A stretch of 49,382 nucleotides of DNA from Candidatus Buchananbacteria bacterium CG10_big_fil_rev_8_21_14_0_10_33_19. Lineage in GTDB: Bacteria > Patescibacteriota > Patescibacteriia > 2-01-FULL-39-33. Made by a program: the position numbers and the translations under genes. This document shows, piece by piece, positions 3,012 to 35,389 of the stretch. The notes below the pieces were generated by a model that saw nothing but the letters and a program-made list of their open reading frames with translations, did no database searches and had not been told where the DNA came from. The DNA is taken from contig PEZY01000002.1 of the NCBI GenBank assembly GCA_002773855.1, positions 1-49,382 of the forward strand, written 5' to 3'. Position 1 is the stretch's first letter. Every line of letters begins with the position of its first letter.

Positions 3012-3590
3012 CAAAAAAGAAGTTTAAATCTTTCAACTCCACCGTCTATTGTTTCCACTACCTATCATAATTTAACTAGACTTTTTTTTAGAATAATCAG
3101 GCACGACACTCTGAGGTCAAAGAATTATTAAATTATTAATTCTAATATTAGAATCACTACTATGTATAACATAGTATATTCCAGCCTCAACTACAACCAA
3201 ATGAAAGTGGAAATATGGAACAATAATAAATAAAGATTTAGATTTTCCAATATCATGATAATTATTTACAAATCAATTTTGATTTTAATAATCTTCTTGA
3301 TCATAAATAAATAAGTCATGAAAAGAGTTATTAGTTATCTCTTTATAAAAAACAGTATGATACTTTTCCTATTGTCCACCTAAGAAGATATCACAATCCA
3401 CTTCCTTTATTTCATTAGGACTTAAACAATTCATACAAAGAAAAAAACTGGAATAATTATTATACTTAATTTAACATCCAAAATAATTTCAGATATTATT
3501 ACCTCCTGTTTTCTTTCTTTGTTATATTTTAATGTTCAAATCACTTTTAAATTTATCATTGATACAATCCAAAGTCAACTTAAAATAATT

Positions 3591-13298: not shown

Positions 13299-14585
13299 AT
13301 GACTCCTTTAATTATTATATTTTGTTTTTTATTTTATTTTTTAACATCTAAAAAACAAAAACTATCTATTTACTTGATAGCAGCCTTGCTACCAAGCTAT
13401 TTAATTAGATTTACTGTGTTTAATATCCCTTTCACGGTACTAGAAATAATGATTTTAATTAGTTTTTTGGTTTTTCTAATTAAATTTAAATTGTCTTGGT
13501 GGAAAAATTTTAAAACTAATACTTTTTTTGGGCCACTAATGGCTATATCAATTTTTTCCAGTATTTCTATATTCACTTCACCAAATTTTCTATCAGCCGC
13601 TGGTATCTGGAAAGCTTATTTTTTAGAGCCAATATTATTTTACATCATATTTATTAATATAATTAAAACCAAAAGCGATTTAAAAAATATTTTTTGGGCG
13701 CTTGGAATATCTGCTCTATACTTAAGTATAATTGCCTTTTGGCAATATTTTAGCGGTTGGAATGTTCCGCTCGCTTTTTTAAAAGCAGACGGCTCTGTTG
13801 ATCGAGTCGTATCTATTTTTGGCTATCCCAATGCTCTTGGTTTATACCTCAGCCCTATTATTATTTTATTTACTGGTTTTTTATGGTGGTCAAAAGATAA
13901 AAAATTATTTCAGGTTTTAAAAATTATCATAATCTTATTGAGCTTTATCACTATTATATTAGCCCAATCTGAGGCTGCTATTTTATCAGTTTTGGGAATT
14001 TGGTTTTTGTGGGGCTTAATTAATAAAAAAACTCGCTATTATTTTTTTGGTTTAATAACTATAGCTATTTTAAGTTTTATTTTCATACCCGCAATTCATA
14101 ATTATTTAATTGAAAAAATATTATTACAAGATTATTCTGGTTTTATTAGACGCCTAATCTGGAGTGAGAGCTGGCATATGTTAAAAGATAACTGGTTTTG
14201 GGGAGCTGGACTAGCTGGCTACCAAACCAAAATAGCAGCATACCATTTACCAACATTTGAAATATTTTTATATCCTCATAATTTCATTTTAAACTTTTGG
14301 AGTGAATTAGGTATTTTAGGCTTACTGTCTTTTATTTGGTTATTTATTAAGTTTATTGTTAATAATATAACTAGTTACTGGACAAATAACCATAATCTGC
14401 TAAATTTAACCATGTTAATGATTATCATTCAATTACTAATTCATGGCTTAGTAGACGCACCCTACTTAAAAAATGATTTATCGATACTGTTTTGGCTAAT
14501 CATTGGTATTTATACTATTAACAAAAATATTAACTACGATGGGATGGCTGAGTTGGTTGAAGGCCCCGCTCTCGCCCGGGGATAA
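13299..14585 (+). CDS. O-antigen ligase / Wzy_C-like membrane protein
   Basis: Multi-TM protein with a periplasmic-loop region (SEAAILS...RRLIWSESW..GAGLAGY). The last ~16 codons are read from the orphan tRNA-Ser half. Confidence 0.7.
   Translation: MTPLIIIFCFLFYFLTSKKQKLSIYLIAALLPSYLIRFTVFNIPFTVLEIMILISFLVFLIKFKLSWWKNFKTNTFFGPLMAISIFSSISIFTSPNFLSAAGIWKAYFLEPILFYIIFINIIKTKSDLKNIFWALGISALYLSIIAFWQYFSGWNVPLAFLKADGSVDRVVSIFGYPNALGLYLSPIIILFTGFLWWSKDKKLFQVLKIIIILLSFITIILAQSEAAILSVLGIWFLWGLINKKTRYYFFGLITIAILSFIFIPAIHNYLIEKILLQDYSGFIRRLIWSESWHMLKDNWFWGAGLAGYQTKIAAYHLPTFEIFLYPHNFILNFWSELGILGLLSFIWLFIKFIVNNITSYWTNNHNLLNLTMLMIIIQLLIHGLVDAPYLKNDLSILFWLIIGIYTINKNINYDGMAELVEGPALARG
14538..14574 (+). repeat. 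Orphan copy of the tRNA-Ser(CGA) 5' half (direct repeat, 37/37 identical to 14919-14955)
   Basis: GATGGGATGGCTGAGTTGGTTGAAGGCCCCGCTCTCG occurs twice. This copy has no matching 3' half. Confidence 0.9.
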
Positions 14586-14955
14586 ACCCCGGGCGTCGGG
14601 GGTTCATCCCCCGACGAAAAGACTTATGCAAAGACTTACATTATGTTTTATGTTTATATTCTACAACTTAAAAATAATCGTTTATACGTTGGCTTTACAT
14701 TGGATCTAAAAAGAAGATACAAACAACACCTCAGCCAGGGAGTAAAATCAACTGCTAGATTATTGCCTCTCAAATTAATACATTATGAATGCTATATCTT
14801 AGAAGAAGATGCTAGAAGACGAGAAAAGTTTTTAAAAACAAGTGATGGACGATTTTTTCTAAATAGACAAATATCAAGTTATTTAAAAAAGATAGGTAGA
14901 TACAAAAAAATATACAATGATGGGATGGCTGAGTTGGTTGAAGGCCCCGCTCTCG
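14575..14955 (+). mobile_element. Putative 381-bp GIY-YIG mini-cassette inserted in the tRNA-Ser anticodon loop
   Basis: Bounded by the 37-nt direct repeat. It starts with two GC-rich hairpins (14573-14595, 14595-14615), carries a GIY-YIG ORF, and ends with the tRNA 5'-half copy. Confidence 0.4.
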
Positions 14956-14966
14956 AAAAGCGGTAA
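14643..14966 (+). CDS. GIY-YIG nuclease family protein (YhbQ/UPF0213-like size)
   Basis: FYVYILQLKNNRLYVGFTLDLKRRYKQH...ARRREKFLK. The 3' end of the ORF runs into the tRNA-Ser gene. Confidence 0.75.
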   Translation: MFYVYILQLKNNRLYVGFTLDLKRRYKQHLSQGVKSTARLLPLKLIHYECYILEEDARRREKFLKTSDGRFFLNRQISSYLKKIGRYKKIYNDGMAELVEGPALEKR

Positions 14967-15009
14967 GGGTTTACGCCCTTCGAGAGTTCGAATCTCTCTC
15001 CCATCGCCA
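14919..15009 (+). tRNA. tRNA-Ser (CGA)
   Basis: Full class II cloverleaf: acceptor GATGGGA/TCCCATC, anticodon loop CTCGAAA, long variable arm, T-arm GAGAG-TTCGAAT-CTCTC, encoded CCA. Confidence 0.9.
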
Positions 15010-15012
15010 AAT

Positions 15013-15040
15013 AAAAAAACTGCTAATTAGCAGTTTTTTT
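15013..15040 (+). terminator. Intrinsic terminator after tRNA-Ser
   Basis: Palindrome ACTGCTAATTAGCAGT followed by T7. Confidence 0.6.
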
Positions 15041-15087
15041 ATTTTGTTATTTTGTAGTATAATATAGTCATATCAATAATCAACTGT

Positions 15088-16464
15088 ATGATTAAATTTA
15101 ATAAGAAATATTTCAATTTTTTGAACTTATTTTTAATTTTTGTATTTCTACTCACTGCTGGTTTTGGCTGTAAAAATCCAGGAGCTGACGTTCAAGAAAA
15201 ACTTAAACCAATCGAAATAAATTATTGGCGAGTGTTTGATAACCAAGATTCTTTTGAAAATATTATTACTCAATATAAATTGATTCATCCTAACATAAAT
15301 ATCATTTATCGTAAATTTAGAATAGAAGAATATGAACAAGCTCTACTTGAAGCCTTAGCTGAAGATCGTGGTCCAGATATATTTAGTATTAATGAAGCTG
15401 ACCTCAGAAAATACCAAACCAAACTAGAACCAATGCCAGTTGAAATTACTATGGCCTATCAATATACTAAAGGCACTATTAAAAAAGAAATTGTCTACGA
15501 ACTAAAAACTACCAAAAGCCTTTCTCTTCGAGAATTAAAAGCTAATTTTGCGGATACTGTTTATAATGATGTGGTTTTAGACGGTCAAATTTACGGTTTA
15601 CCTTTAAGCTTAGAAACTTTGGTTATGTTTTACAATAAAGACATACTAAACAAAGCTGGTATTGCTCAAGCACCAAAAAATTGGAAAGATTTTCAGGAAG
15701 CGGTACAGAAATCTACTAAATTTGATAGTACCGGTAAAATAATTCAATCAGGAACAGCTCTTGGCACTGGCGACAACATTGAAAGAAGTTTTGATATTAT
15801 ATCCATCCTTATGATGCAAAATGGAGCAATTATGACTGATAATAATAATTATGCTACTTTTTCTAATTCTACTGGTGATAAATATTTCCCTGGCATAGAA
15901 GCTATTAAATTTTATTTAGACTTTGCCTCACCAGTAAAAAGTGTTTATTCTTGGAATACTGATATGTCCAATTCATTTGAATCATTTTTAAGTGGTAAAA
16001 CTGCTTTTATGTTTGGCTATAATTACCATTTACCAAGCATTAGGTCTAGGGCACCGAAGTTAAATTTGGGCATTGCTCCAATTCCACAAATCAACCAAGA
16101 CAACCCAATTAACTATGCTAATTATTGGATTGAAGGGGTCTCTAAAAAATCAGAACACCAAAACGAAGCCTGGGATTTTGTTTTATTTGCTACCAACAAA
16201 GACAATATTAAGTCATACTTAGAAACCACCAAAAGGCCAACAGCCCTTAAAGAGTTACTTAGCTCACAAACTGATGATGAAGACCTTTACCCAACATCCA
16301 TTCAAACCCTAACTGCTACAAATTGGTACCAAGGCAAAAACCAAGCGGCTACCGAAGAAGCTCTTAAGAATATGATTGAAGCCCTACCAAATGCCTTATC
16401 TGATCGTGATTTTTCTGACATTATTAAAAACACTATAACCAAAATTAATCAAACAATCCAATGA
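15088..16464 (+). CDS. Extracellular solute-binding lipoprotein (ABC family-1 sugar-binding type)
   Basis: Lipobox LLTAGFGC. Body typical of carbohydrate-type binding proteins (YGLPLSLETLVMFYNKDIL, NWKDF). No permease or ATPase gene is present anywhere in the window. Confidence 0.8.
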   Translation: MIKFNKKYFNFLNLFLIFVFLLTAGFGCKNPGADVQEKLKPIEINYWRVFDNQDSFENIITQYKLIHPNINIIYRKFRIEEYEQALLEALAEDRGPDIFSINEADLRKYQTKLEPMPVEITMAYQYTKGTIKKEIVYELKTTKSLSLRELKANFADTVYNDVVLDGQIYGLPLSLETLVMFYNKDILNKAGIAQAPKNWKDFQEAVQKSTKFDSTGKIIQSGTALGTGDNIERSFDIISILMMQNGAIMTDNNNYATFSNSTGDKYFPGIEAIKFYLDFASPVKSVYSWNTDMSNSFESFLSGKTAFMFGYNYHLPSIRSRAPKLNLGIAPIPQINQDNPINYANYWIEGVSKKSEHQNEAWDFVLFATNKDNIKSYLETTKRPTALKELLSSQTDDEDLYPTSIQTLTATNWYQGKNQAATEEALKNMIEALPNALSDRDFSDIIKNTITKINQTIQ

Positions 16465-16895
16465 GATTTAAAAAAACCTTAAGTCTATTTTTAATTATAA
16501 TATCTTTATTTTTAGTAGTACCTAATGTTTCTGCTATTTCTCTAGTACCAGAAAGTTGTTATGCTCTTGATGATGAAGGAATTAGTCTAGGCTGTAGTTT
16601 ATGTGATTTTATAACATTATTTATTAATGCGGCTGATATTTTAGTTGGCTTAAGTGGTACATTTTCTATTTTAATGTTTGTTTATGGTGGCATAGTTATA
16701 ATTACTGCTTATGGCAATGATTCTAGAATAAAGTGGGGTAAAGACATTATAACTGCCACTGTGGTGGGTGTTTTTATTGTTTTATTTGCTTGGGTAATAA
16801 TTAATTTAGTTATTGGCGCTTTATTTGGTACTGGTAATTCAGTACTATCAAATTGGTATAATGTTAGTGGGGTCTGTAGTCAAAACAAGAATTAA
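16461..16895 (+). CDS. Divergent pilin-like small membrane protein (paralog 1)
   Basis: ATGA overlap with the stop codon of the binding-protein gene. Signal peptide, Cys-rich exposed segment, then a TM-loop-TM core (FVYGGIVIITAYGNDSRIKWGKDIITA). Confidence 0.6.
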   Translation: MRFKKTLSLFLIIISLFLVVPNVSAISLVPESCYALDDEGISLGCSLCDFITLFINAADILVGLSGTFSILMFVYGGIVIITAYGNDSRIKWGKDIITATVVGVFIVLFAWVIINLVIGALFGTGNSVLSNWYNVSGVCSQNKN

Positions 16896-17034
16896 AACAT
16901 AGACTTACATACCATTAAGAATATTATTTACCAAGAACTGTAACTATTTAGACAACTAGCTTAAACACCTATAAATTGTTATAATAATAATACATTTAAT
17001 TAATAAATATCCTAAAAAGAAAGGGGGTGAAAAA

Positions 17035-17415
17035 ATGAATAAATTAACACTAAAGAAGGTTTCTGTTGGCCTATTAACAGTAATGATGTTGTCAATTTTT
17101 GCTTTACCAGTATTAGTTTCAGCTCAAGAACTTAATTTGGGACTTGAAAACGCTGCTGGCATTGGTTTGGGACAGAAAGATTTGAAAGAAAGCATTAATT
17201 CTATTATTCAAATTATTTTAAGTTTCTTAGGAATTCTAGCTGTAATTATTATCCTGTGGGGTGGTTTCATTTGGATGACCGCTGCTGGTGATGAGGGTAA
17301 AGTTGATAAAGCTAAAAAACTTATTATTTCTGGTATTGTCGGTATAGTTATTATTTTATCAGCCTACATTATCGCTAACTTTGTTATTACTCAAGTTGGT
17401 GGACAATTAGTCTAA
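17035..17415 (+). CDS. T4SS-pilin-like (VirB2/TrbC-type hairpin) protein, paralog 2
   Basis: Strong SD AAAGGGGGTG. Signal peptide ending VSAQ. Core WGGFIWMTAAGDEGKVDKAKK between two TM helices. Confidence 0.7.
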   Translation: MNKLTLKKVSVGLLTVMMLSIFALPVLVSAQELNLGLENAAGIGLGQKDLKESINSIIQIILSFLGILAVIIILWGGFIWMTAAGDEGKVDKAKKLIISGIVGIVIILSAYIIANFVITQVGGQLV

Positions 17416-17434
17416 ATATTTAGTTATAGTATTA

Positions 17435-17462
17435 AGTTAACGGGGATTAATCCCCGTTAACT
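17435..17462 (+). promoter_or_regulatory. 12-bp GC-cored hairpin between paralogs 2 and 3 (no T-tract)
   Basis: AGTTAACGGGGA-TTAA-TCCCCGTTAACT. Confidence 0.4.
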
Positions 17463-17476
17463 ACTATATTTACCTT

Positions 17477-17833
17477 ATGAAAAAATCAATCAAAAAATTA
17501 TTAGGAATAATATCTTTAGTTTTGCTGACTTGGCCAAGTATATCTAGTGCCCAATTAACAAATCTAAAAGGAGCTACCCCAGAATTACTGCAGGGTGGTA
17601 GCATCTATAGCATTATCGGTACTATTATCCAAACACTACTTGGTTTTGTTGGAGTTCTATTTATAGTTTTGGTAATCTATGGTGGTTTTACCTGGATGAC
17701 TGCTGGTGGTGATAGTGGTAAAGTTCAAAAAGCTAAGGATACTATTATAAAAGCGACAATTGGTATAGTCATAATTATGGCTTCATACGCTATAGTCTAT
17801 ACTATAATCAATCAAATAACTTTAGAAAGTTAA
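17477..17833 (+). CDS. T4SS-pilin-like protein, paralog 3
   Basis: Signal peptide ending SSAQ. Core YGGFTWMTAGGDSGKVQKAKD. Confidence 0.7.
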   Translation: MKKSIKKLLGIISLVLLTWPSISSAQLTNLKGATPELLQGGSIYSIIGTIIQTLLGFVGVLFIVLVIYGGFTWMTAGGDSGKVQKAKDTIIKATIGIVIIMASYAIVYTIINQITLES

Positions 17834-17864
17834 AAAAATAAATTAATAATTAATAAACAAAAAG

Positions 17865-18263
17865 ATGAAAAAACTAGCTAAAATGGTTCTTAGCTCATTA
17901 ATTCTAACCATGATATTTGCCACTGTATTGTCTGTATCGCCGGCTAATGTTTCAGCAGCTGTTTGGGATGATGGACTGACAAATTTTACCTCTGGAGCAA
18001 CTGACCTACCTAATGGTACTACTGACTTAAAAGCCGCTATTGGCGAGGTAATTCAAATATTTTTAGGCTTTTTAGGTATTCTTGCAGTAGTTTTAATTAT
18101 ATATGCTGGTTTCTTGTGGATGACTGCTGGTGGTGATAGTGGCAAAGTAGATAAAGCTAAAGATTACATTAAAAATGCGGTTATTGGTATTGTTATAATT
18201 TTAGCCGCCTACATTATTACTAGTTTCGTCTTGGAACAAGTAAATAATACATTAGGTATCTAA
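17865..18263 (+). CDS. T4SS-pilin-like protein, paralog 4
   Basis: Signal peptide ending VSAA. Core YAGFLWMTAGGDSGKVDKAKDYIKNAVIG. Confidence 0.7.
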   Translation: MKKLAKMVLSSLILTMIFATVLSVSPANVSAAVWDDGLTNFTSGATDLPNGTTDLKAAIGEVIQIFLGFLGILAVVLIIYAGFLWMTAGGDSGKVDKAKDYIKNAVIGIVIILAAYIITSFVLEQVNNTLGI

Positions 18264-18284
18264 TAGATCACAAAAAATATAAAA

Positions 18285-18315
18285 AACATCTCGGTTTGTC
18301 TGGGGATGTTTTTTG
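18285..18315 (+). terminator. Intrinsic terminator after paralog 4
   Basis: An 8-bp stem AACATCTC/GGGGATGTT followed by a T-run. Confidence 0.55.
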
Positions 18316-18326
18316 ATTTATTTAAT

Positions 18327-18355
18327 TTGTAAACTACAGTTAAATAAATTATAAT
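18327..18355 (+). promoter_or_regulatory. Promoter for paralog 5
   Basis: TTGTAA (18327-18332), 17-nt spacer, TATAAT (18350-18355). Confidence 0.45.
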
Positions 18356-18388
18356 TAAAATATATTAATCAAATACTATAAACTCATT

Positions 18389-18781
18389 ATGAAAAAAACT
18401 GCCAAAATAATTTTTAGCCTTGTTGTTTTAGTTACCGTTTTCTCGGTAGCTATAATGCCTCAAGCCAGAGCCAATGTTTTACTAGACGGTTTAACTAAAA
18501 CTGTCGAGGGCACCGATCTTAGCAATGGCACAACCGGTATTAATTTACCAATAGTAATTGGAAAAATTATTCAAATCTTTTTAAGCTTTTTAGGTGTTAT
18601 TGCTGTAATCATAATTATTTACGCTGGCTTCCTCTGGATGACTGCTGGTGGTGATAGCGGCAAAATTGAAAAGGCTAAAAGTTATATCAAAAATGCGGTC
18701 ATTGGTGTAGTGATAATTTTAACTTCTTATATTATTACTAGTTATGTTATAGAACAAGTTAGTAAAACCATAAAAGCTTAA
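18389..18781 (+). CDS. T4SS-pilin-like protein, paralog 5
   Basis: Signal peptide ending ARAN. Core YAGFLWMTAGGDSGKIEKAKSYIKNAVIG. Closest to paralog 4. Confidence 0.7.
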   Translation: MKKTAKIIFSLVVLVTVFSVAIMPQARANVLLDGLTKTVEGTDLSNGTTGINLPIVIGKIIQIFLSFLGVIAVIIIIYAGFLWMTAGGDSGKIEKAKSYIKNAVIGVVIILTSYIITSYVIEQVSKTIKA

Positions 18782-19589: not shown

Positions 19590-20306
19590 TTACCTTAGCA
19601 ACCTTACTTTAAGTAAAATAGATTGTTTTAGATAATTTAACGATGTAGAAAAAATATTAACCTTACTTTGACGGTTATTATTATCAACTGCAGACCAAAT
19701 AACCGGTATTTCTAATATTTTAAAACCTTGTTTATTAGCTAAAACCAATAACTCTGTGTCCCAAAAAAATTCCTGATTTTCAATTTCTGACAATAAACTA
19801 TCCCGTACATTTCTAGTTACTACTTTAAAGCCACAGGGAAAATCATTAATTTTTAATAAAAAAAGAATCTTAAAGAACCAGCGATAGCACTGAGAAATAA
19901 ATTTACGTTGCCAGGATCTAGTAACCTGTGATTGTTTATGAAATCTTGAACCAATTACTAAATCCAGTCCGGATTTAATTTGCTTAATTGCTATTATTAG
20001 AGCTGATAAATCAGTAGCTAAATCGGCATCCATAAAGCAATATAAATCAGCATCGTATTTAGACCAAGCTGAAGCAATAGCTAAACCCTTGCCTTTTTGA
20101 CCAATAAACAAATGCTCGACATTAGAATAACTAAGCGATAAATTATCAGCTATTTGACCAGTTTTATCAGTAGAATTATTATTAGCAATAACAATTACAA
20201 ATTGATCATTAACTAAGTTATTAAAACAAAAATCTATTATTTTTTTTACACTATCAGTCAAAATAAATTCTTCGTTATAAGCCGGTAAAGCTATTAATAT
20301 TTTCAT
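19590..20306 (-). CDS. GT2 glycosyltransferase, polyprenyl-phosphate sugar synthase-like (DPM1/ArnC type)
   Basis: MKILIALPAYNEE..., DADL motif, 238 aa. Confidence 0.8.
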   Translation of the reverse strand: MKILIALPAYNEEFILTDSVKKIIDFCFNNLVNDQFVIVIANNNSTDKTGQIADNLSLSYSNVEHLFIGQKGKGLAIASAWSKYDADLYCFMDADLATDLSALIIAIKQIKSGLDLVIGSRFHKQSQVTRSWQRKFISQCYRWFFKILFLLKINDFPCGFKVVTRNVRDSLLSEIENQEFFWDTELLVLANKQGFKILEIPVIWSAVDNNNRQSKVNIFSTSLNYLKQSILLKVRLLR

Positions 20307-20335
20307 TTAAAGACTCCAGTTTGTTAATAATTAAT

Positions 20336-21988
20336 TTATAAAACCATATAGATAACCGCTTCATTATCTGAATATACTTTATCAAAATAAAAATTATTAT
20401 CCAAATTACTGATCATTTCTTTATGATCAGTGGTCGCCAAAATATATTTGGCTTTAAAATTATTTTTAATAATATTATATAAATTATCTGATAGTTGACC
20501 ACGGGTAATTTCTGACCATTGATAATAAAGATCTTTATTATATAAATACATAAAGGTTGGGTCGAGTCCTACAATATAATAATTTTTACTATTATGATAA
20601 AACAAGATCGGAAATTCATCCCAATCACTGTGAAAAACTATATCACCTTCTTCACTATTATTTATTAAATATTGTGAAGCTGATTTTAAGTAATTAAAAT
20701 TAAAACCATTATCTAAACTGCTTTTAGCATGATAAGGCATAATATAAAAAAGTGAAGAAATAATAACTACTAAAAAAAATATTAATAAAATTTTAACATA
20801 TAAATTATGAAAAAAAACTTTCTTGATTATTTTTTTAAATTCTTTTAAATCATTTTTAATTTCTAAAATATACATTGACTGGCTAAAAGTCATGGCTGAA
20901 AAAATAATTGCAAATGGTGCTAAATATTCAATATTTCTTCGAGATTTAATAGTGGCTAAAATAAAAGCTAAAAATAAAGCCAACGAATATTTGGCCACAA
21001 TATTAAATTTTTGATGATAATTTAAAAATAAAATCAAAGCCACAAAACTTAAAGAAAAAGATAAGCTATTATTTATAAAAAAATCACTCACTTTATACGG
21101 ATACCATTCAGCACCAACACCGATAATTGATTGGTAATTAACAAAAGCAATTTTAATAATATGAATGTAGTAAAATTCTAAATTTTTTGGAAAATAAGGA
21201 TTTATAATTAAACCCAAAACCAAACCAATTAAAACACTAAATAATAGTTTTATATTATTAGAATTAAAAATATTTTTTAAAAAAGTAATAATAAATAAAT
21301 TAATTTTATCCAATAAATCTGTTTTTTTAAATTTTAAATTAATAATATTGCTTAACCAATGATTGTGTATTTTTAAAAAAGCCAAATCTAAACTTTCTAC
21401 AAACACATAAAGTGAGGCAATAATAAACATTAAAAACCAACCACCATAAGACCAGACATACAAAAAAGATAGTAAAATCAACCAATAATATCGCCTTTGA
21501 GTGATTAAATAAAAACCTAAAAATAAAATTATCAAAGATAATGGCTGAGCTTTAATTAAACTCATTCTAAAAATAAAAGATTCAATAAATAATAAAAAAA
21601 CAATATACCAAAAAGCCCCATTAATTTTAAACTTCAAAAATAACCAATATAAAATTAACAAGGCTATTGAGACCAGTATTATGTGTCCAATTTTGGCACC
21701 TACTAATGGTGGTAACAATTTTACAAAAGGAACTAAGTAAATATGATATAACAAATGGTGATCAATATAACCGGAATTTAAAGTGGTAAATTGTAAATAA
21801 GGAAAATCCCTAACTATCCCATGTTCACTAATTAACTGCGCCACTTTTGTATGATAAAAAGAATCTGGATCAGAAAAAGTTGGGGCATACTCTAACCAAG
21901 AAAAAAAAGTAAAACATATTAAAAAAAGCAACAGACCAGCTATTGCTTTATTGTCAGTTAACCAATTATTAATTTTTGTAAAAAACAT
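20336..21988 (-). CDS. Large multi-pass GT-C-type membrane glycosyltransferase (ArnT/PMT/STT3-like)
   Basis: 550 aa with more than 10 TM helices. The acidic loop motif FSDPDSFYH follows TM1. It has a soluble C-terminal domain and is adjacent to the GT2 synthase. Confidence 0.6.
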   Translation of the reverse strand: MFFTKINNWLTDNKAIAGLLLFLICFTFFSWLEYAPTFSDPDSFYHTKVAQLISEHGIVRDFPYLQFTTLNSGYIDHHLLYHIYLVPFVKLLPPLVGAKIGHIILVSIALLILYWLFLKFKINGAFWYIVFLLFIESFIFRMSLIKAQPLSLIILFLGFYLITQRRYYWLILLSFLYVWSYGGWFLMFIIASLYVFVESLDLAFLKIHNHWLSNIINLKFKKTDLLDKINLFIITFLKNIFNSNNIKLLFSVLIGLVLGLIINPYFPKNLEFYYIHIIKIAFVNYQSIIGVGAEWYPYKVSDFFINNSLSFSLSFVALILFLNYHQKFNIVAKYSLALFLAFILATIKSRRNIEYLAPFAIIFSAMTFSQSMYILEIKNDLKEFKKIIKKVFFHNLYVKILLIFFLVVIISSLFYIMPYHAKSSLDNGFNFNYLKSASQYLINNSEEGDIVFHSDWDEFPILFYHNSKNYYIVGLDPTFMYLYNKDLYYQWSEITRGQLSDNLYNIIKNNFKAKYILATTDHKEMISNLDNNFYFDKVYSDNEAVIYMVL

Positions 21989-21995
21989 GTTTAAT

Positions 21996-23066
21996 TTATT
22001 TGGCTAATTCTTTCTTAAAAAAATCAACATAAGGAATGGCTGTTGGATTTTGACCATTTAAAATGGTTAAATAATAACTAGTCCATGAACCTAAAAGTAA
22101 TATTTCTAAAGCAGTTAATAATTTACTATCGCTATTAATAGAGTAATCTATGAATTTTATTTTTTGATTTTTTAAAACTTTTTCAGTCACATAAAATCTT
22201 TTTTTAATTATATCTGAATATAAATTAGAATTAAAAAATAAAAATTTTATTTTGGAAGTAATTAAATTTGGTAATTTTAAACCCTCAAGCAAATGATGAT
22301 TTAATTCTGGTATTGAATAATATTGGGCTAAATTTTTAGCACTTTCATTTATTTGATTATTTAATATATGAATATTAGCTGTTAAAAAATCAGCTGATAC
22401 TAGTATTGGTAATTGATCTTGTAATTCTAGGGCTAATTTTTTAGCAAAATTATTACTACTATTTATTTCTGGTAAAAAACTTTGATTTAATATAGACAAA
22501 TATTCACAAGATTGTTTAATATCTTGGTTATTAATCTTAATTAATTTTAATTTACTAAATAATGCTAGTATTGCTCCTAATTGCAAGCCAATGGCATATC
22601 TTGGTTGATTTGATGGATTATAATCTGTATTTATTTGATAAAAAGGAATTTTATTTTTCTTAGCTATAGAAATTATTTTACCACCACTAGCAAAACAAAA
22701 AACCTTAGCTTTTTTAGAAATTGCTTCTTTTAAACAATTAACTATTTCTTCGGTATTTCCAGAATAACTAGAAATAATTACTAATGTTTTATTATTTACA
22801 AATTCTGGTAAGTTATAGTTTCTAACTAAAATATAAGGAATTTTTATATCTGTATTATAAATACTCCTAATTAATTCCGTGGCCAAATTAGAACCGCCCA
22901 TGCCACAAACTACTAGATTTTGAAAGTTATTATAATTTTTTAACGCCTTTATTTTCGACATTTCATCCCAAGATTGATTAATTTGATCCGGTAAAAATGA
23001 TATAGTATCAGCTACCTTTGATTTATTATATCTTTTAAGTGTTTTTAGATCATCTAATATTTTCAT
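21996..23066 (-). CDS. Bifunctional phosphoglucose/phosphomannose isomerase (SIS domains)
   Basis: CGMGGSNLA, SYSGNTEE, PELNHHLLEG. Confidence 0.8.
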   Translation of the reverse strand: MKILDDLKTLKRYNKSKVADTISFLPDQINQSWDEMSKIKALKNYNNFQNLVVCGMGGSNLATELIRSIYNTDIKIPYILVRNYNLPEFVNNKTLVIISSYSGNTEEIVNCLKEAISKKAKVFCFASGGKIISIAKKNKIPFYQINTDYNPSNQPRYAIGLQLGAILALFSKLKLIKINNQDIKQSCEYLSILNQSFLPEINSSNNFAKKLALELQDQLPILVSADFLTANIHILNNQINESAKNLAQYYSIPELNHHLLEGLKLPNLITSKIKFLFFNSNLYSDIIKKRFYVTEKVLKNQKIKFIDYSINSDSKLLTALEILLLGSWTSYYLTILNGQNPTAIPYVDFFKKELAK

Positions 23067-23201
23067 AGATATTAATTATAATAATTATCTTAATAAGATT
23101 ATTTTAATTCTAACAGATTTAAGATAATTATACCATTGATTTTTATGTCTATATATGGCATAATCCAGATAGATTATTTCACAAATAGTTAATTTTATTT
23201 T

Positions 23202-23936
23202 ATGTCAGGACACAGTAAATGGGCGAAAGTCCATAGACAAAAATCAGTCGCCGATTCTAAAAAAGGTGCTGTTTTTACCAAACTAGGAAACTTAATAACT
23301 ATTGCCGCCAAAGAGGGTGGCGGTGATACTGAAAATAATTTTAAATTAAGATTGGCTGTAGAAAAGGCTCGAGCAGCTAACATGCCAAAAGATAATATTG
23401 AAAGAGCTATTAAAAGAGGTGCTGGTACTGGTGATGGTAAAAATGTCCTAGAAGAAATAACCTACGAAGTCTTTGGTCCAAACAATAGTCTTTTTATAAT
23501 AGAGACTATTACCGACAACAAAAATAGAACGGTATCTGATTTAAAAACAGTTTTAAGTAAAAATAATGGCCAATTAGGTGGCCCTAATAGCGTAATTTGG
23601 CAATTTGAAAGAAAGGGTATAATTTTAATCGACAATAGTCAAATATTCAATATTAATACGGAGGACTTGGAATTAAATTTAATAGATGCTGGGGCAGAAG
23701 ATATTAAAAAAAGTGATGACGGACTAGAAATAATCACTGCTAGTGATAAATTACAAGAAGTGGAGAAAAACATCAAAAAATTAAACATTGAAATTAATGA
23801 ATCATTATTGGGTTTTAAACCAAAAGATGAATTAAATATAATCGATCAAGACGCTCAAGATAAAATTGAAAAACTATATAACACCATAGATGATCTTGAT
23901 GATGTTAATAATATTTATACTAATGCCAACTGGTAA
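23202..23936 (+). CDS. yebC: YebC/PmpR family DNA-binding regulator
   Basis: MSGHSKWAKVHRQK..., KLRLAVEKARAANMPKDNIERAI. Confidence 0.9.
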   Translation: MSGHSKWAKVHRQKSVADSKKGAVFTKLGNLITIAAKEGGGDTENNFKLRLAVEKARAANMPKDNIERAIKRGAGTGDGKNVLEEITYEVFGPNNSLFIIETITDNKNRTVSDLKTVLSKNNGQLGGPNSVIWQFERKGIILIDNSQIFNINTEDLELNLIDAGAEDIKKSDDGLEIITASDKLQEVEKNIKKLNIEINESLLGFKPKDELNIIDQDAQDKIEKLYNTIDDLDDVNNIYTNANW

Positions 23937-24414
23937 AAAATTAACAATTTTAGGAATAGACCCAGGCATTGCTGATACTGGTTATGGTGTAATAATCTTT
24001 GAGAACAATAAAATTATTCCAATTGACTATGGCTCAATAACTACTGATAAAAAAATAATTCTAGCTAAAAGATTAGAAAAATTAGAAACTGATCTTAAAA
24101 AAATTATAAAAAAATATCAACCAGATATTATAGGTATTGAACAGTTATTTTTTTGTAACAACGCCAAAACAATTATAAGTGTTGGTCAAGCTAGGGGAGT
24201 TATAATGTTAACAGCTGCTAAAAATAATATCCACATCAAAGAATTTACACCATTACAAGTCAAACAAGGAGTAACTGGTTATGGTAAGGCTGATAAAAAA
24301 CAAATCCAACAAATGATTAAAATTATATTGGGTTTAAATGAAATACCAAAGCCGGATGATGCCGCTGATGCTTTAGCCATTGCTATTTGCGCTATAAATA
24401 CTAATATATTTTAA
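23923..24414 (+). CDS. ruvC: Crossover junction endodeoxyribonuclease RuvC
   Basis: ILGIDPGIADTGYGVI, IEQLFF, DDAADALAIAIC. ATG 23923 overlaps the end of yebC. Confidence 0.9.
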   Translation: MPTGKKLTILGIDPGIADTGYGVIIFENNKIIPIDYGSITTDKKIILAKRLEKLETDLKKIIKKYQPDIIGIEQLFFCNNAKTIISVGQARGVIMLTAAKNNIHIKEFTPLQVKQGVTGYGKADKKQIQQMIKIILGLNEIPKPDDAADALAIAICAINTNIF

Positions 24415-24418
24415 AAAA

Positions 24419-25201
24419 ATGAATTCTTTAAAGCCTATAGTATCTGTCTTAATACCGGTTTACAATTGTGAAAAATATTTAAAGGAAGCTGTAAATTCTG
24501 TTTTAAATCAAACTTATCAAAATTTTGAAATCATTATTATAAATGATGCCTCTACTGACAAAAGCCAAAAAATTGCTGAAAAATTTGTAAATCAAGATAA
24601 GCGAATTAAATTAATTAATCATAAAAAAAATAAATTTCGCTCTGGAGCTTTAAATTCCGGACTTAAAATATCTACTGGATCATATATTTCATTTTTAGAC
24701 GCTGATGACTATTATCACCACGATAAATTAAAAAAACAAATTATTTTTTTAGAAAAAAATAAAAAAATAGATATGGTTTATAGTAATTTTAATTATATAA
24801 ATCTAAAAAAAGAAATAATATTTAGAGAAGCAATTGATTTTAAAATTAATCCTAAAAAAATATTAATAACTGCCTCAAAAAATAAAGATGTAAAAAATTT
24901 TCCCAGTTATAAAATATTATGTCACAACAATAATTGTCGTATTATTCCAAGTTGCTCACCATTAATTAGAAAAAAAGTCTTTAAAAATATTAAATTTGAT
25001 GAAAAATTAGTTACCTCACAAGATTATGATTTATGGTTTCAAATAATTGGTCATAATTTTAAAATAGCTAAATTACCTATTATATCTTATTACTATCGAC
25101 ATCATCCCAATCAAATTAGTACTAGTAAAAACAAAGAGAAGCGTAAAAAATCACATAAAAGAATTATTAAAAAGCTTATTACTGGAGTATATTTTAAATA
25201 A
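24419..25201 (+). CDS. GT2 glycosyltransferase
   Basis: VSVLIPVYNCEKYLKEAVNSVLNQTYQNFEIIIINDASTD, LDADD. Confidence 0.85.
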   Translation: MNSLKPIVSVLIPVYNCEKYLKEAVNSVLNQTYQNFEIIIINDASTDKSQKIAEKFVNQDKRIKLINHKKNKFRSGALNSGLKISTGSYISFLDADDYYHHDKLKKQIIFLEKNKKIDMVYSNFNYINLKKEIIFREAIDFKINPKKILITASKNKDVKNFPSYKILCHNNNCRIIPSCSPLIRKKVFKNIKFDEKLVTSQDYDLWFQIIGHNFKIAKLPIISYYYRHHPNQISTSKNKEKRKKSHKRIIKKLITGVYFK

Positions 25202-26143
25202 ATGAAAAAGCCAAAAATACTTTTAATTCCTAATATTCCTAATTGGGCTTTTGATAACCAAGCAAAACAACTTAAAAAAAGATTATCAAAATATTATAAT
25301 ATTGATATTAAATATCATAGTGATTTTAAAAAAATCACAAAAAATAATTTAGAAGAGTATAAATGTATTTTTGTATTTTTTTGGCCAGCTTTAAATACAA
25401 TTTTAAAATACTTAACACCTGAAACAGCTAAACAAAAATTAATTACTGGAATTTTTAGTTATAATAGTTGGAAAGGTAAAAAAAATTTAGCAAAAAAACA
25501 ATTTAATAAGTGTCGTGGTATTATTATTAACAACAAAAAAATAGTAAATCTATTTAAATCAAAAGAAAACAAGTATGAAATATTTTATATGCCTAAATCA
25601 GTTGATAGTGAAATATTTTATCCCCAAAAAAACAAACCAACAAAAAATAAAACTAATAAATTAATTATTGGCTGGGCTGGAAATCCAGATCATGTTGATC
25701 GTAATTATAAAGGTTATTGGAATATATTATTACCTGTTTACAAAAAAAATACAGATTGGTTAGAATTAAAAACTGCTTTTAATAAAGATAATTTTATTCC
25801 TCACCATAAAATGAATGACTTTTATAATTCTATTGATGTTTTAATTTGTGTTAGTAAAGCAGAAACTGGACCAAATACAGTTTTAGAAGCTGGTGCCTGC
25901 AAGGTGGCTATTATATCCACTAAAGTAGGTATTGTCGAAGAAATTATAAAAGATAATTATAATGGATTAATTATTAATCGCAATCAAAAATCATTAGAAG
26001 AAAGTTTAAAAAAATTATATAATAATAAAAAATTAAAAAATAAATTAGCTAATAACTTATATAATAAAATTATAAAAGATCATACTTTCAAAAAAAACAT
26101 AAAATCATATCATGGATTATTTAAATATATTATTAAACAATAG
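25202..26143 (+). CDS. GT1/GT4-like glycosyltransferase (C-terminal Rossmann half recognisable)
   Basis: ETGPNTVLEAGACKVAIISTKVGIVEEIIKDNYNGLII. Confidence 0.65.
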   Translation: MKKPKILLIPNIPNWAFDNQAKQLKKRLSKYYNIDIKYHSDFKKITKNNLEEYKCIFVFFWPALNTILKYLTPETAKQKLITGIFSYNSWKGKKNLAKKQFNKCRGIIINNKKIVNLFKSKENKYEIFYMPKSVDSEIFYPQKNKPTKNKTNKLIIGWAGNPDHVDRNYKGYWNILLPVYKKNTDWLELKTAFNKDNFIPHHKMNDFYNSIDVLICVSKAETGPNTVLEAGACKVAIISTKVGIVEEIIKDNYNGLIINRNQKSLEESLKKLYNNKKLKNKLANNLYNKIIKDHTFKKNIKSYHGLFKYIIKQ

Positions 26144-26148
26144 CACTT

Positions 26149-27210
26149 ATGAAAATTGCTCAATTAGTTTCTGGAATTTATTCAGTATCAGATAAATCTA
26201 GTCATGCTATTTATTCACATGTAGCTTGGCTTTGTAATGGCTTAACAGATAAAAAACATCAAGTAGAATTGTTTGCCTCTGGTGATTCTAAAACAAAAGC
26301 CAAATTAAATAGTGTTTATCTAAAATCATTTAATAAAACAAAATTAAACGAAAATTTAATAAAATATTATACATTTTTATTAAATTCTAATTGTTATAGT
26401 AAGGCTAATAATTTTGATATTATTCATTCTCATTTTACTATTGTTAATTTATTTTTTACCAAATTAACAAGCACGCCAAGTATTCAGTCTATTCACAGTC
26501 CTATTACTAATGATCAAAAAGAAATATTAAAACATTTTAAATCAAATCGTTTTATTTCTTTTTCTTTAGCTCAAAGAAAATCAATGCCTGAATTAAATTG
26601 GATTGCCAATATTTATCATGGTGTTGATATGGATATTTTTTCCTATAATTCAAAACCTAAGGATTATTTTCTTTATTTAGGTAGAATTACTAAAGAAAAA
26701 GGTGTACATTATGCTATAGAAGCTGCTAAGGCTGCTAAAGTGCCTTTAATTTTAGCTGGTAGAAGTTATTCTAATGAGGGTTATTGGCACGAAAAAATAG
26801 AAAAACAAATAGACGGAAAAAACATAAAATATGTTGGTGAATTAAATTTTAAAGATAAAATAGAATATATTAGAAACGCCAAAGCTTTAATATTTCCAAC
26901 TCAATATACTTATGAGGTTTTTGGTTATGTAATGATTGAAGCTATGGCTTGTGGTACACCGGTTATTGGTTGGAAAAATGGATCTGTTCCAGAAATAATA
27001 TCTGATAAAAAAACTGGCTATGTTGTTAATAGTATTAATGAAATGATCCAAGCTATTAAAGATATAAATAAAATAAAAAGAGAGGATGTTAGAAAAAGAG
27101 CTGAAAGATATTTTAGTATTAAAAAAATGGTTTCTGGTTATGAAAAAATATATAAAAGAATTATTGATGAAAATAAAATAAACCAAGATAAAAAAAATAA
27201 TAGATTATAA
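26149..27210 (+). CDS. GT4 glycosyltransferase
   Basis: FLYLGRITKEKGV..., EVFGYVMIEAMACGTPVIGWKNGSVPEIISDKKTGYVV. Confidence 0.85.
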   Translation: MKIAQLVSGIYSVSDKSSHAIYSHVAWLCNGLTDKKHQVELFASGDSKTKAKLNSVYLKSFNKTKLNENLIKYYTFLLNSNCYSKANNFDIIHSHFTIVNLFFTKLTSTPSIQSIHSPITNDQKEILKHFKSNRFISFSLAQRKSMPELNWIANIYHGVDMDIFSYNSKPKDYFLYLGRITKEKGVHYAIEAAKAAKVPLILAGRSYSNEGYWHEKIEKQIDGKNIKYVGELNFKDKIEYIRNAKALIFPTQYTYEVFGYVMIEAMACGTPVIGWKNGSVPEIISDKKTGYVVNSINEMIQAIKDINKIKREDVRKRAERYFSIKKMVSGYEKIYKRIIDENKINQDKKNNRL

Positions 27211-27252
27211 TTTTATATATAATTTATTATTATTAAAAAATATTATCCAAAT

Positions 27253-29844
27253 ATGTCTATACCTCAACTTTCTAAAAAAATAAAATCATCACAAGATTGG
27301 AGAAATCCAACTTATATTAGAGGTGGTGGTTATCAACATCAAAAATCATCAAATAATTTTTCAGTTTCTTCTAAATACAAAAAACCAAAAAATCAAAAAT
27401 GGCTTAGGAAGTTGTTAGGCGTATTAATTCCTATTAGTATTTTTTTATTTTTAATTGGCGGTATATTTATATTAGGTTCATTTGCTTGGATATCTAAAGA
27501 TTTACCAAATCCAGATGGAATTATTAATAGATCAGTTACTGTTAGTACTAAAATATATGATCGAAAAGGAGAAACTGTTTTATATGATATTCATGGTAAT
27601 ATTAAAAGAACATTAATCCAATTAGAGGAAATTCCACCACATGTTATAAATGCTACTTTAACTGCTGAAGATAGAAATTTTTATACTCATAAAGGTTTTA
27701 GTATAACTGGTATTTTAAGATCTGTTATTAAAAATATTTTTACTGGTAGTAAAGTTGGTGGCTCTACTTTAACTCAGCAATTTGTTAAAAATGCTATTTT
27801 AACTAATGAAAAAACTTATACTAGAAAATTAAAAGAAGTATTAATATCTTATCGATTAGAAAAAAGCTTTACTAAAGATCAGATATTAAATATGTATTTT
27901 AATGAAATACCTTATGGTTCAGTGATTTATGGTATAGAAGCTGCATCTCAATCATTTTTTGGAAAACCAGCTAAAGATTTAACAATAGCTGAAGGAGCTA
28001 TAATTGCCGCTATTCCTCAAGCCCCGACATTTTACTCTCCTTATGGTAATAACAAGGATAAATTAATAATCAGACAAAGATATATATTAGATTCAATGTC
28101 TGAACTTGGTTATATAACTAAAGATCAAGTTGAACAAGCTAAAAATGAAAAAATAATTTTTAAACCATTACAAGAATCAATTATTGCTCCTCATTTTGTA
28201 ATGTATGTTAAAGAATTATTATCAGAAGAATATGGTGAAGAATTTATTAATCAAGAAGGTTTAAAAGTTTATACCACTTTAGATCTAGATAAACAAAGAA
28301 TTGCCGAAGAAGCAATAAAACAAGGGGTTGAAACCAACAGTGTTAAATATGGTTTTACTAATTCATCATTAGTTGCTTTAGATCCAAAAACTGGTCAAAT
28401 TATAGCTATGGTTGGCTCAGCTGATTATTTTAATAATGATATTGATGGTCAAGTAAATGTCTCTTTAAGACCTAGACAACCAGGATCATCATTTAAACCA
28501 ATTGTTTATACAGCAGCTTTTACAAAAGGTTATACTCCAAATACAATTTTATATGATGTAGTTACTAATTTTGATACTACTGGTAATAAAAAATATGAAC
28601 CTCATAATTATGATTTAAAAGAAAATGGTCCAGTTACTCTTAAAAAAGCCTTACAAGGTTCTTTAAATATACCAGCAGTTAAGATAACTTATTTAACTGG
28701 TTTAGAAAATGTTTTAGACTTAGCTGATGATTTAGGTTACACCACATTAAGTAACAGAGATCGATTTGGATTATCATTAGTTTTAGGTGGAGGTGAAGTT
28801 AAATTATTAGAACACGTTGGTGCTTATAGTGTTTTTGCTCAAGAAGGCTTAAAACATAATATAACTCCTATTTTAAAAATAGAAGATAAAAATGGTAAAG
28901 TTTTATTTGAATACAAAGATAAGAAAAAAGAAGTTTTAGATCCAGAATACGCTAGATTAATAAGTAGTGTTTTATCAGATGATGAAGCTAGAACTTATGT
29001 TTTTGGTGCTGGTAGTAAATTAACTTTACCTGGACGTCCTGTAGCCGCTAAAACTGGTACTACAAATGATTATCGTGATGCTTGGACTATTGGCTATACT
29101 CCTAATTTAGTAGCTGGTGTTTGGGTAGGTAATAATAATAATACTGAAATGAAAAAAGGCGCTGATGGTTCGATTATTGCTGCTCCTATTTGGAATTATT
29201 TTATGAAAGAATCATTAAAAGATACTACTCCAGAAAATTTCAATACTCCAAAAGAAATAATTACTAATAAAGCTGTTTTAGATGGTCAAGAAACTGCTGA
29301 AACTGTTATAAAAATTGATATTATGTCTAATAAATTAGCCACTCAATACACTCCAGAATCAACAATAAAAGAAATTAATACAAAAGAAATTCACAATATT
29401 TTATATTATATAAATAAAGACGATCCTAGAGGTGTAAAACCAGATAATCCAGAAGATGATCCTCAATTTAAAAACTGGGAAGATGCTGTAATTAGATGGG
29501 CTACAGAACAAGGTTTTGATTTAAATCAAAATATAGAAATACCAACTGAATACGATAATATTCATTTAGAAGAAGACCAACCAAAATTAATAATTATCTC
29601 ACCAACACCTGGTCAAATTATAAATAATAATGAATTAAAAATTGATATAACTGGATCAACTAAAAGAGGTATTAAAAAAGTAGAATATTATATTGATAAT
29701 AATTTAATATTAACTAAAAATGATATCAGTGATACAAATTTAAATATTTCTAATATAGTTAGTGGTACTCATATATTATTAATTAAAATAAAGGATGATT
29801 TAGAAAATACCGATATTAAATCAGTTAGTATAAATAAACTTTAA
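27253..29844 (+). CDS. Class A penicillin-binding protein (transglycosylase/transpeptidase) with a C-terminal Ig-like extension
   Basis: EDRNFYTHKGF, GGSTLTQQ, SSFKP (SxxK), KTGTT. Confidence 0.9.
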   Translation: MSIPQLSKKIKSSQDWRNPTYIRGGGYQHQKSSNNFSVSSKYKKPKNQKWLRKLLGVLIPISIFLFLIGGIFILGSFAWISKDLPNPDGIINRSVTVSTKIYDRKGETVLYDIHGNIKRTLIQLEEIPPHVINATLTAEDRNFYTHKGFSITGILRSVIKNIFTGSKVGGSTLTQQFVKNAILTNEKTYTRKLKEVLISYRLEKSFTKDQILNMYFNEIPYGSVIYGIEAASQSFFGKPAKDLTIAEGAIIAAIPQAPTFYSPYGNNKDKLIIRQRYILDSMSELGYITKDQVEQAKNEKIIFKPLQESIIAPHFVMYVKELLSEEYGEEFINQEGLKVYTTLDLDKQRIAEEAIKQGVETNSVKYGFTNSSLVALDPKTGQIIAMVGSADYFNNDIDGQVNVSLRPRQPGSSFKPIVYTAAFTKGYTPNTILYDVVTNFDTTGNKKYEPHNYDLKENGPVTLKKALQGSLNIPAVKITYLTGLENVLDLADDLGYTTLSNRDRFGLSLVLGGGEVKLLEHVGAYSVFAQEGLKHNITPILKIEDKNGKVLFEYKDKKKEVLDPEYARLISSVLSDDEARTYVFGAGSKLTLPGRPVAAKTGTTNDYRDAWTIGYTPNLVAGVWVGNNNNTEMKKGADGSIIAAPIWNYFMKESLKDTTPENFNTPKEIITNKAVLDGQETAETVIKIDIMSNKLATQYTPESTIKEINTKEIHNILYYINKDDPRGVKPDNPEDDPQFKNWEDAVIRWATEQGFDLNQNIEIPTEYDNIHLEEDQPKLIIISPTPGQIINNNELKIDITGSTKRGIKKVEYYIDNNLILTKNDISDTNLNISNIVSGTHILLIKIKDDLENTDIKSVSINKL

Positions 29845-29943
29845 CATCTAAGACATTTAACTATGATTAATTACTTCTCTGGAGCTCAAAATTAGCTTGA
29901 GAGTAGAATATCTACTTGATCTTATAACTTATAACAAATAAAT

Positions 29944-29972
29944 AAAAAAATCGCTTACAAGGCGATTTTTTT
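29944..29972. terminator. Bidirectional terminator
   Basis: ATCGC-TTACAAG-GCGAT flanked by an A-run and a T-run, between the convergent PBP and dnaN genes. Confidence 0.55.
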
Positions 29973-29984
29973 ATTTATTATGGT

Positions 29985-35383: not shown

Positions 35384-35389
35384 ATAGAT

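Follow-up and report, generated by a model that had tools for sequence, protein, structure and literature searches.

Here, we have analysed a stretch of 49,382 nucleotides (nt) of the genome of Candidatus Buchananbacteria bacterium CG10_big_fil_rev_8_21_14_0_10_33_19 (contig PEZY01000002.1), referred to below as the window, and we focus on a locus at which a tRNA-Ser(CGA) gene and a partial copy of it bracket a small gene for a GIY-YIG nuclease. The 37-mer GATGGGATGGCTGAGTTGGTTGAAGGCCCCGCTCTCG, which begins the tRNA and ends at C34-G35, occurs at 14538-14574 and again at 14919-14955, with 37/37 identical positions and an offset of 381 nt, as found by sequence reading, a repeat finder and a pattern search. 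The window contains 2 exact matches to the 37-mer against 0 expected from 100 shuffles, and it holds no further copy with up to three mismatches. A single tRNA-Ser(cga) was called by ARAGORN and Rfam, at 14919-15009 (51.4 bits), and it is the only tRNA-Ser(CGA) of the window; the copy at 14538-14574, hereafter the orphan half, has no remainder of a tRNA after it. The open reading frame (ORF) between the two copies matches the GIY-YIG family PF01541 at its residues 1-67 (50.7 bits against a cut-off of 22.6; E 2.3e-13). As the ORF translations show, both this ORF and the upstream O-antigen ligase-like gene, Wzy_C, run into their own copies of the tRNA half (..DGMAELVEGPAL..). An earlier note on this DNA had described the duplicated half, the single complete tRNA, the GIY-YIG frame between the copies and the two read-throughs, and all of them were recovered in our analysis. 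The features of the locus are collected in Table 1.

Table 1. Features of the tRNA-Ser(CGA) locus, in window coordinates.
Feature	Coordinates	Strand	Basis or remark
Wzy_C (O-antigen ligase-like) gene	13299..14585	+	PF04932, E 3e-16
Orphan 5' part of tRNA-Ser(CGA), position 1 to C34-G35	14538..14574	+	37/37 identity to 14919-14955
Palindrome, hairpin 1 (hp1)	14573..14595	.	Stem scan and type-A alignment
Palindrome, hairpin 2 (hp2)	14594..14616	.	Stem scan and type-A alignment
b' = AAAAG, five more tRNA-derived nt (A36-A38 and the beginning of the 3' anticodon stem)	14617..14621	+	
Short AT-rich spacer or 5' untranslated region	14622..14642	+	
GIY-YIG nuclease ORF, 107 codons	14643..14966	+	Pfam PF01541
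Complete tRNA-Ser(CGA), CCA encoded	14919..15009	+	ARAGORN, Rfam
Terminator-like hairpin, then T run	15009..15044	+	Ends the putative unit orphan-hairpins-ORF-tRNA

Lacking its own stop codon, the Wzy_C gene continues at its 3' end through the orphan half into hp1. The orphan half occupies the start of the ancestral tRNA, directly 3' of Wzy_C, and its upstream flank is orthologous to that of an intact tRNA in a related locus, L089 (loci from other genomes carry L numbers throughout). The terminator-like hairpin behind the complete tRNA also keeps its position in L089. No promoter-like site was found between the orphan half and the GIY-YIG ORF. A search of 14450-15100 for an Rfam intron, ribozyme or known leader returned the tRNA alone, at both the gathering and the E<=1 thresholds. 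Two other readings of the repeat were tried and rejected. The repeat could seem to extend to 54 nt, but the additional 17 nt form the AT-rich 3' terminus of the ORF and have homologous counterparts where the ORFs of relatives end; they are not a duplicated flank. Nor can the first copy with its hairpins be taken for a tRNA fold or for a mimic of a T-arm or variable arm, as a 3' acceptor strand is lacking and the loops of the hairpins measure 4-5 nt.

The earlier note predicted that an empty site would consist of the ligase-like gene followed directly by an intact tRNA-Ser. Such a site is present in L089, a metagenome contig that is syntenic with the window on both sides (Wzy_C 68% identical, the orthologue of the SBP gene 76% identical). 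There, Wzy_C abuts an uninterrupted tRNA-Ser(CGA), which is followed by the same terminator region and then by SBP; relative to it, the window has 381 additional bases inside the anticodon loop. The tRNA also directly follows Wzy_C in L090, L091 and L092. At the level of sequence, these comparisons establish the window locus as an insertion into the anticodon loop of tRNA-Ser(CGA) at C34-G35 with exact borders. The presence and absence at this one precise site, occupied in the window and empty in L089, is a comparison between species and not within a population. The insert of 381 bp carries the GIY-YIG gene as its single ORF, and none of the neighbouring genes (Polysacc_synt, Wzy_C, SBP and pilins) is an integrase or recombinase, in line with the absence of an integrase reported before.

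The overlap between Wzy_C and the tRNA gene predates the insertion, because Wzy_C reads about 50 nt into the tRNA both in the window (13299-14585) and in the empty-site L089 (2989-4275). In L001, L090 and L092, the stop codon of Wzy_C precedes the tRNA.

The position of the junction in the anticodon loop is as the earlier note gave it, but that account overlooked a twin GC-rich palindrome (14573-14616) standing at this junction. The first hairpin is CGCCCGGGG ATAAA CCCCGGGCG, and its first CG is C34-G35 of the tRNA. The second, CGTCGGGGG TTCAT CCCCCGACG, has its central CG in common with the first, so that each hairpin has a 9-bp stem, one CG belongs to both, and two further CGs form the outer bounds. 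A hairpin scan of the window found this pair as the sole one, against about one chance single hairpin per shuffle; as far as these 49 kb show, the pair is not a genome-wide repeat with many dispersed copies of the REP/MITE kind. A hammerhead-like ribozyme was rejected: the order hairpin-hairpin-GAAA lacks a CUGANGA core, as judged by eye.

The locus is one member of a large family. A scan of one genome per species (GTDB) gave 307 relatives, 80 of which were examined, and 76 loci had enough downstream sequence to be evaluated. A tRNA gene on the same strand lies within 100 nt after the ORF in 49/76 of these loci, against 0.0036 expected per locus from the surrounding DNA. The linked tRNAs represent 14 anticodon types, Ser(CGA) being the commonest, and most loci have a partial tRNA copy upstream of the ORF, which in about 15 cases is 100% identical to the adjacent tRNA. 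The recurrence of the cassette beside other tRNA genes and tRNA halves, which the earlier note had proposed to look for, is therefore extensive, and the comparison shows the window cassette to belong to this tRNA-linked family. Its closest homologues (L001, L003, L004 and L005) each lie directly upstream of a tRNA-Ser(CGA), and L001, L003 and L004 have their own lineage-specific 5' half and a palindrome pair with compensatory changes. The distribution of the cassettes across phyla is patchy.

The 50 palindrome pairs found in the family are each placed at a dinucleotide of the anticodon loop (CT|CG|AAAA), of the T-loop (GGTT|CG|AATCC) or, in one clade, of the D-loop. Insertion into the anticodon loop, as in the window, is thus one of several types of site. 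The pairs are usually followed by 4-9 further nt of tRNA, and b' in the relatives tracks the local anticodon-loop or T-loop sequence (AAAAC/G.. or AATCC..). Since the anticodon loop of tRNA-Ser(CGA) has TCGAA in common with the T-loop, this shared motif may explain why Ser(CGA) is the favoured host of the anticodon-loop type. In L014, the T-loop reads TTCAAAT and the flanking dinucleotides are CA..TG..CA, and the flanking dinucleotide therefore derives from the target and pairs within the stems. Both the type of site and the type of hairpin track the protein clade. As the basal clade of the tree has neither tRNA nor palindromes, the tRNA-linked clades form, on this tree, a specialised subgroup. 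A different architecture is found within the same protein family in L064, L067 and L068 (2440-2900 in each), members of the basal tRNA-free clade, whose ORFs lie between inverted repeats of about 20 nt, e.g. CCCGGTAGTGAGACTTTG ... CAAAGCTCTACTACCGGG.

The palindromes themselves fall into two types, A and B. Across 29 type-B and 9 type-A pairs, 99.8-100% of the alignment cells were paired (100% in type A), and changes on both sides were found at 11/16 pairs in type B and 8/16 in type A, figures with a slight bias toward pairing at the inner pairs counted, as the scan demanded at least three stem pairs. The scan also relies on fixed loop motifs and under-counts variants such as those of a Cloacimonadota clade and L027. 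G-U pairs are nearly absent from the alignments of both types. Moreover, the loop of hp2 is the reverse complement of that of hp1, exactly in most type-B pairs and nearly so in the window, and because of this the palindrome pair is alike on both strands. The scarcity of G-U pairs and the strand symmetry suggest a structure at the DNA level, or the binding site of a dimer, in preference to an RNA hairpin. The loops resemble the T-loop motif, being TCGNAT in type B and GTT-AATC, i.e. the T-arm motif minus its CG, in type A. Some relatives have several palindrome pairs, always within tRNA-derived DNA. When L001 and L002 are compared, their hp1 (2942-2964 and 1123-1145) differ at 7/23 nt, through three compensatory pair changes and one loop change, beside ORFs that are ~99% identical and orphan halves that are identical; this divergence would imply templated copying between the arms or exchange of whole hairpins.

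The layouts of several relatives speak for invasion. In L009, L038, L052 and L057, the orphan 5' part and a 3' remnant downstream fit each other and not the live tRNA. As the acceptor 5' strand of the orphan is complementary to the 3' remnant in L009, L038 and L052, an older resident tRNA brackets a cassette with its own tRNA in these three loci, and in L057 an old tRNA-Asn is split around the new tRNA. The nucleotides after the palindromes match the live tRNA and not the orphan in L008, L052 and L058, which places the junction exactly at the dinucleotide. Where orphan and complete tRNA differ, the evidence supports that the cassette brought a whole replacement tRNA. Tandem arrays of partial tRNA, hairpins and ORF occur in L061, L032, L033 and L011, and two metagenome-assembled genomes (MAGs) have two loci each (L012 and L034; L011 and L023). 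A mirror layout, in which the order is tRNA, ORF, GGTTCG, hairpins and 3' remnant, is found in L019, L023, L042 and L057. The earlier comparison of the cassette to a mirror image of integrase-type islands is correct for the window, where the 5' part is duplicated and no integrase is present, but does not extend to those clades with the mirror layout, which duplicates the 3' part.

Several loci contain further remnants. L007 has two solitary units (2886-2929 and 3071-3114) of GCACTCG, a palindrome pair and AAATGCGG, without an ORF and downstream of the tRNA, and the orphan and palindromes upstream of its ORF are degenerate. In L052 (2854-3060), L014 (2882-3075) and L030 (2894-3008), the live tRNA is followed by several remnants of tRNA 3' ends, some of them behind hairpins; these runs look like graveyards of successive replacements. 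The orphan D-loop of L005 (2880-2925 and 3395-3415) contains about 29 additional nt of small GC hairpins (CACCCTGCGGGTG, CCGCCTTTGGCGG), and similar hairpins nearby suggest that this genome holds a second kind of short hairpin repeat.

The GIY-YIG protein is a single catalytic domain. Across 37 relatives, no variation is found at Y15, G17, R25, H29 and E61 and almost none at Y3 and Y5, and we take these to be the catalytic residues by analogy with I-TevI. The conserved core spans about 90 codons (to ~14912), and, as the stop codon of the relatives has been lost, the frame runs on into the tRNA for its last 16 codons (14919-14966); that the tail is read-through follows from the size of the homologues, mostly 85-95 aa, and from the predicted disorder of residues 95-107. 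The AlphaFold model (predicted local distance difference test score, pLDDT, 85) is confident over residues 1-94, with values above 90 in the core, and predicts the alpha/beta GIY-YIG fold, a three-stranded sheet with helices. Its top structure matches are 1zg2, 1ywl, Slx1 (6seh) and I-TevI (1ln0) at modest TM-scores of 0.37-0.54. By sequence, the nearest solved relatives are the UPF0213 entries 1zg2 (E 4e-13) and 1ywl (E 1e-9), followed by Slx1 and the I-TevI catalytic domain. The protein thus has the closest relatives, the single domain and the length of about 90 aa of the UPF0213/YhbQ-like members of the Slx1 cluster, whereas the Seg-type build of an N-terminal GIY-YIG domain and a C-terminal DNA-binding region (~200+ aa) is absent from a core of this size.

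The ratio of nonsynonymous to synonymous substitution rates (dN/dS) of the ORF is 0.06 against L001, with a range of 0.06-0.16, values that indicate strong purifying selection. Synonymous sites are near saturation between the window and L001 cassettes (proportion of synonymous differences, pS, 0.65), which occupy the same locus. Nevertheless, orphan half and live tRNA agree at 37/37 positions within each lineage, even though the two lineages differ from each other at 3 positions. As it still matches the live tRNA after an old divergence, the orphan half is not a passively decaying relic, and by this comparison its agreement with the tRNA must be upheld by gene conversion, by repeated re-homing or by selection.

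We consider it rather probable that the locus is a mobile homing-type cassette aimed at the T-arm-like loops of tRNA genes, one that keeps or supplies an intact tRNA. As part of this reading, a small selfish cassette composed of the twin palindrome, a nuclease-only GIY-YIG gene for ~90 aa and tRNA sequence would best explain the observations. In the window, the cassette would have inserted at C34-G35 of the anticodon loop, so that the resident 5' part became an orphan adjoining the palindromes; the cell retains the essential tRNA, because a complete tRNA stands immediately 3' of the nuclease gene. The unit of orphan, hairpins, ORF and tRNA is probably transcribed from upstream and terminated at the terminator of the tRNA. 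The nuclease may recognise T-arm-like hairpin-loop DNA, namely T-loops of the sequence TTCGAAT and the anticodon loop of tRNA-Ser(CGA), which resembles them with CTCGAAA, and may make a staggered cut around the central dinucleotide that leaves a 2-nt 3' overhang, as is typical of GIY-YIG enzymes; the junctions of the 50 palindrome pairs always lie at one dinucleotide of such loops. A break in a cassette-free tRNA gene could then be repaired from, or joined to, a cassette-bearing copy, with the conserved tRNA sequence serving as a portable homology arm and the twin palindrome as a putative DNA-level end or recognition module. Repeated cutting and repair would account both for the tandem arrays, which suggest re-cutting in the relatives, and for the identity of the orphan with the live tRNA. 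The invariant catalytic residues and the low dN/dS predict an active enzyme.

Several points weigh against this homing-type reading. We infer the cleavage activity and the target of the nuclease from sequence evidence. The protein is a catalytic domain without a DNA-binding domain, unlike known homing enzymes, and the self-immunity of an occupied homing site is missing, as an intact and presumably cleavable tRNA with both CTCGAAA and TTCGAAT loops adjoins the gene. An empty allele within the species was not present among the matches listed (3 contigs, via the neighbouring SBP protein). Viral contigs, phages and plasmids contain almost no members of the family (3 matches in 2.9 million viral contigs and none in phage records). 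Lastly, the near-saturated synonymous sites at one locus also fit a long vertical residence.

A bolder version, which we regard as possible but tentative, is that the cassettes constitute a distinct and undescribed class of mobile element, in which an Slx1-like nuclease-only enzyme acts on T-arm-like DNA hairpins. The twin palindrome would then be the element's own end, cut to the 2-nt overhang of the target, so that the cassette could enter both by joining at the break and by copying during repair. By carrying a tRNA gene, or part of one, the element would be able to invade an essential gene present in one copy without doing harm, and the conservation of tRNA sequence among species would provide it with a universal homology arm.

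It is conceivable, albeit improbable, that the cassette is instead a domesticated host module, in which a GIY-YIG protein with a cellular role at tRNAs or tRNA genes (repair, processing or quality control) is co-transcribed with the tRNA, and the orphan and hairpins form a functional leader such as a stabiliser of the mRNA end or a processing signal. Such a role would suit the strong purifying selection, the occupation of the same locus in two old lineages and the 37/37 match of orphan and live tRNA in lineages that differ at 3 positions. It would also suit a unit with no promoter between orphan and ORF and one terminator 3' of the tRNA, and hairpins found at the 5' end of the mRNA in one layout and at its 3' end in the mirror layout. 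However, the close syntenic relative L089 lacks the cassette, and the family is patchy across phyla and spread over 14 anticodon types, with remnants of replaced tRNAs, tandem arrays and orphans that have degenerated next to an intact ORF (L007, L005 and L040), while the G-U scarcity and strand symmetry of the hairpins speak against a purely RNA role.

Somewhat less credible still is the proposal that the palindrome pair is an independent miniature mobile element targeting tRNA loops, with the GIY-YIG gene as a passenger or neighbour and the duplication produced by ordinary recombination or slippage. The pair lies 15-40 nt from the ORF in about 50 loci, the hairpin type tracks the protein clade, and, besides being unique in the window, the pair was not found away from tRNA-derived sequence. 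These points count against the proposal, even though single hairpins do occur in D-loops or elsewhere in orphan copies (L053, L054, L055 and L080), solitary hairpin units without an ORF exist in L007, and hairpins seem to have been exchanged between cassettes, as judged from mixed A/B pairs and from the divergent hp1 of L001 and L002.

We give very little credence to the view that the locus is a relic, either of a group I intron, now degenerate, and its homing gene or of an integrase since lost that duplicated its att site. Group I introns are indeed found in the anticodon loops of bacterial tRNAs, and the ORF has a weak match to the NCBIfam group I intron endonuclease model (19 bits, under the cut-off of 56), but no Rfam intron or ribozyme was found at E<=1, the live tRNA is uninterrupted and the space between orphan and ORF is just 68 nt; for an integrase, the 5' part and not the 3' part is duplicated, and no recombinase is nearby here or in the related loci listed. 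Finally, assemblers can create short exact repeats, but 14400-15100 (701 nt) is 100% identical in contigs of three independent assemblies (ERZ27293358, ERZ27293360 and JGI 3300004210), which excludes a misassembly of the two repeat copies whose reality the earlier note had wanted checked, and the same architecture with lineage-specific sequence recurs in dozens of unrelated MAGs, so that the chance of an artefact is negligible.

Patescibacteria typically have a single copy of each tRNA gene. If the homing-type reading is right, T4-like phages are not the only place where free-standing nuclease genes parasitise tRNA genes; such genes would be common in cellular genomes, especially in the ultra-small Patescibacteria. 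It would also explain a source of the partial tRNA genes that confuse annotation, and would give a widespread GIY-YIG family of ~90 aa a testable function; in its bolder version, this would be the first biological role for a branch of UPF0213. The enzyme would be a nuclease of very small size whose DNA target is both defined and structured, and the cassette would be a natural element that offsets its own damage by carrying or rebuilding the gene that it breaks. The strictly Watson-Crick yet fast-changing twin palindromes pose a separate puzzle of how DNA palindromes are maintained.

Other features of the window lie outside the cassette. The 3' end of a 23S rRNA gene and a 5S rRNA gene are found at 1-625 and the 5' start of a 16S rRNA gene at 49304-49382, all on the + strand; with 23S/5S and 16S at opposite ends of the window, the rRNA genes are unlinked or form two loci about 48.7 kb apart. 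Downstream of SBP, five tandem paralogous T4SS-pilin/TrbC-like genes (16461-18781; 118-144 aa) encode proteins with a signal peptide and a GGDxGKxxKAK motif. The GC content at about 20000-36000 is 23-26%, against ~29-33% elsewhere in the window, and this could be a compositionally distinct segment.

Comparison with known systems places the protein closest to UPF0213/YhbQ (1zg2, 1ywl) and the Slx1 cluster, which it resembles in sequence, fold, size and single-domain build. Slx1 enzymes cut branched or structured DNA, an activity that would suit hairpin or cruciform substrates, and no function or tRNA-gene linkage of UPF0213 was reported in the literature searched. Integrase-mediated islands in tRNA genes were reportedly sorted into classes by Williams in 2002. 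Like the cassette, these islands target tRNA genes, often in the anticodon loop or T-loop, bracket their insert with a direct repeat of tRNA sequence and regenerate an intact tRNA (PMC9897764). They differ in having a tyrosine or serine recombinase, a length of kilobases and a duplicated 3' part, whereas the window cassette has 381 bp, no recombinase and a duplicated 5' part; the mirror-layout cassettes of other clades share the 3' duplication. Group I introns with homing endonuclease genes also target tRNA anticodon loops and carry a nuclease gene as cargo (PMC3984707), but the cassette has no ribozyme and keeps the function of the tRNA by duplication, not by splicing.

The openly accessible literature contained no description of a small cellular GIY-YIG cassette with a partial tRNA duplication and junction palindromes; what it described instead were integrase-type tRNA fragments, group I introns and SegB of phage T4. 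The failure of the earlier note to match the locus to a described element is thereby corroborated, and the cassettes point to a widespread selfish element that is apparently undescribed, with SegB as the closest precedent. SegB, a phage protein, has roughly 220 aa and a DNA-binding part, whereas the cassette protein is cellular, has a catalytic domain of ~90 aa only and belongs to the UPF0213/Slx1-like branch; we know of no SegB locus described with partial tRNA duplications or junction palindromes. We would file the cassette with the free-standing homing nucleases, albeit as one that lacks the Seg-type DNA-binding region and evident immunity of the occupied allele. The analogy to SegB drawn by the earlier note fits. 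The recognition site of T4 SegB is the T-arm motif GGTTCRANTCC, and its cuts leave 2-nt 3' overhangs (PMC2330249); the cassette junctions likewise lie in T-loops or in a T-loop-like anticodon loop, with the dinucleotide duplicated. Both are intron-free GIY-YIG genes among or next to tRNA genes, and SegB spreads with neighbouring tRNA genes and has been linked to segmental amplification (PMC13096335), which parallels the tandem arrays of cassettes.

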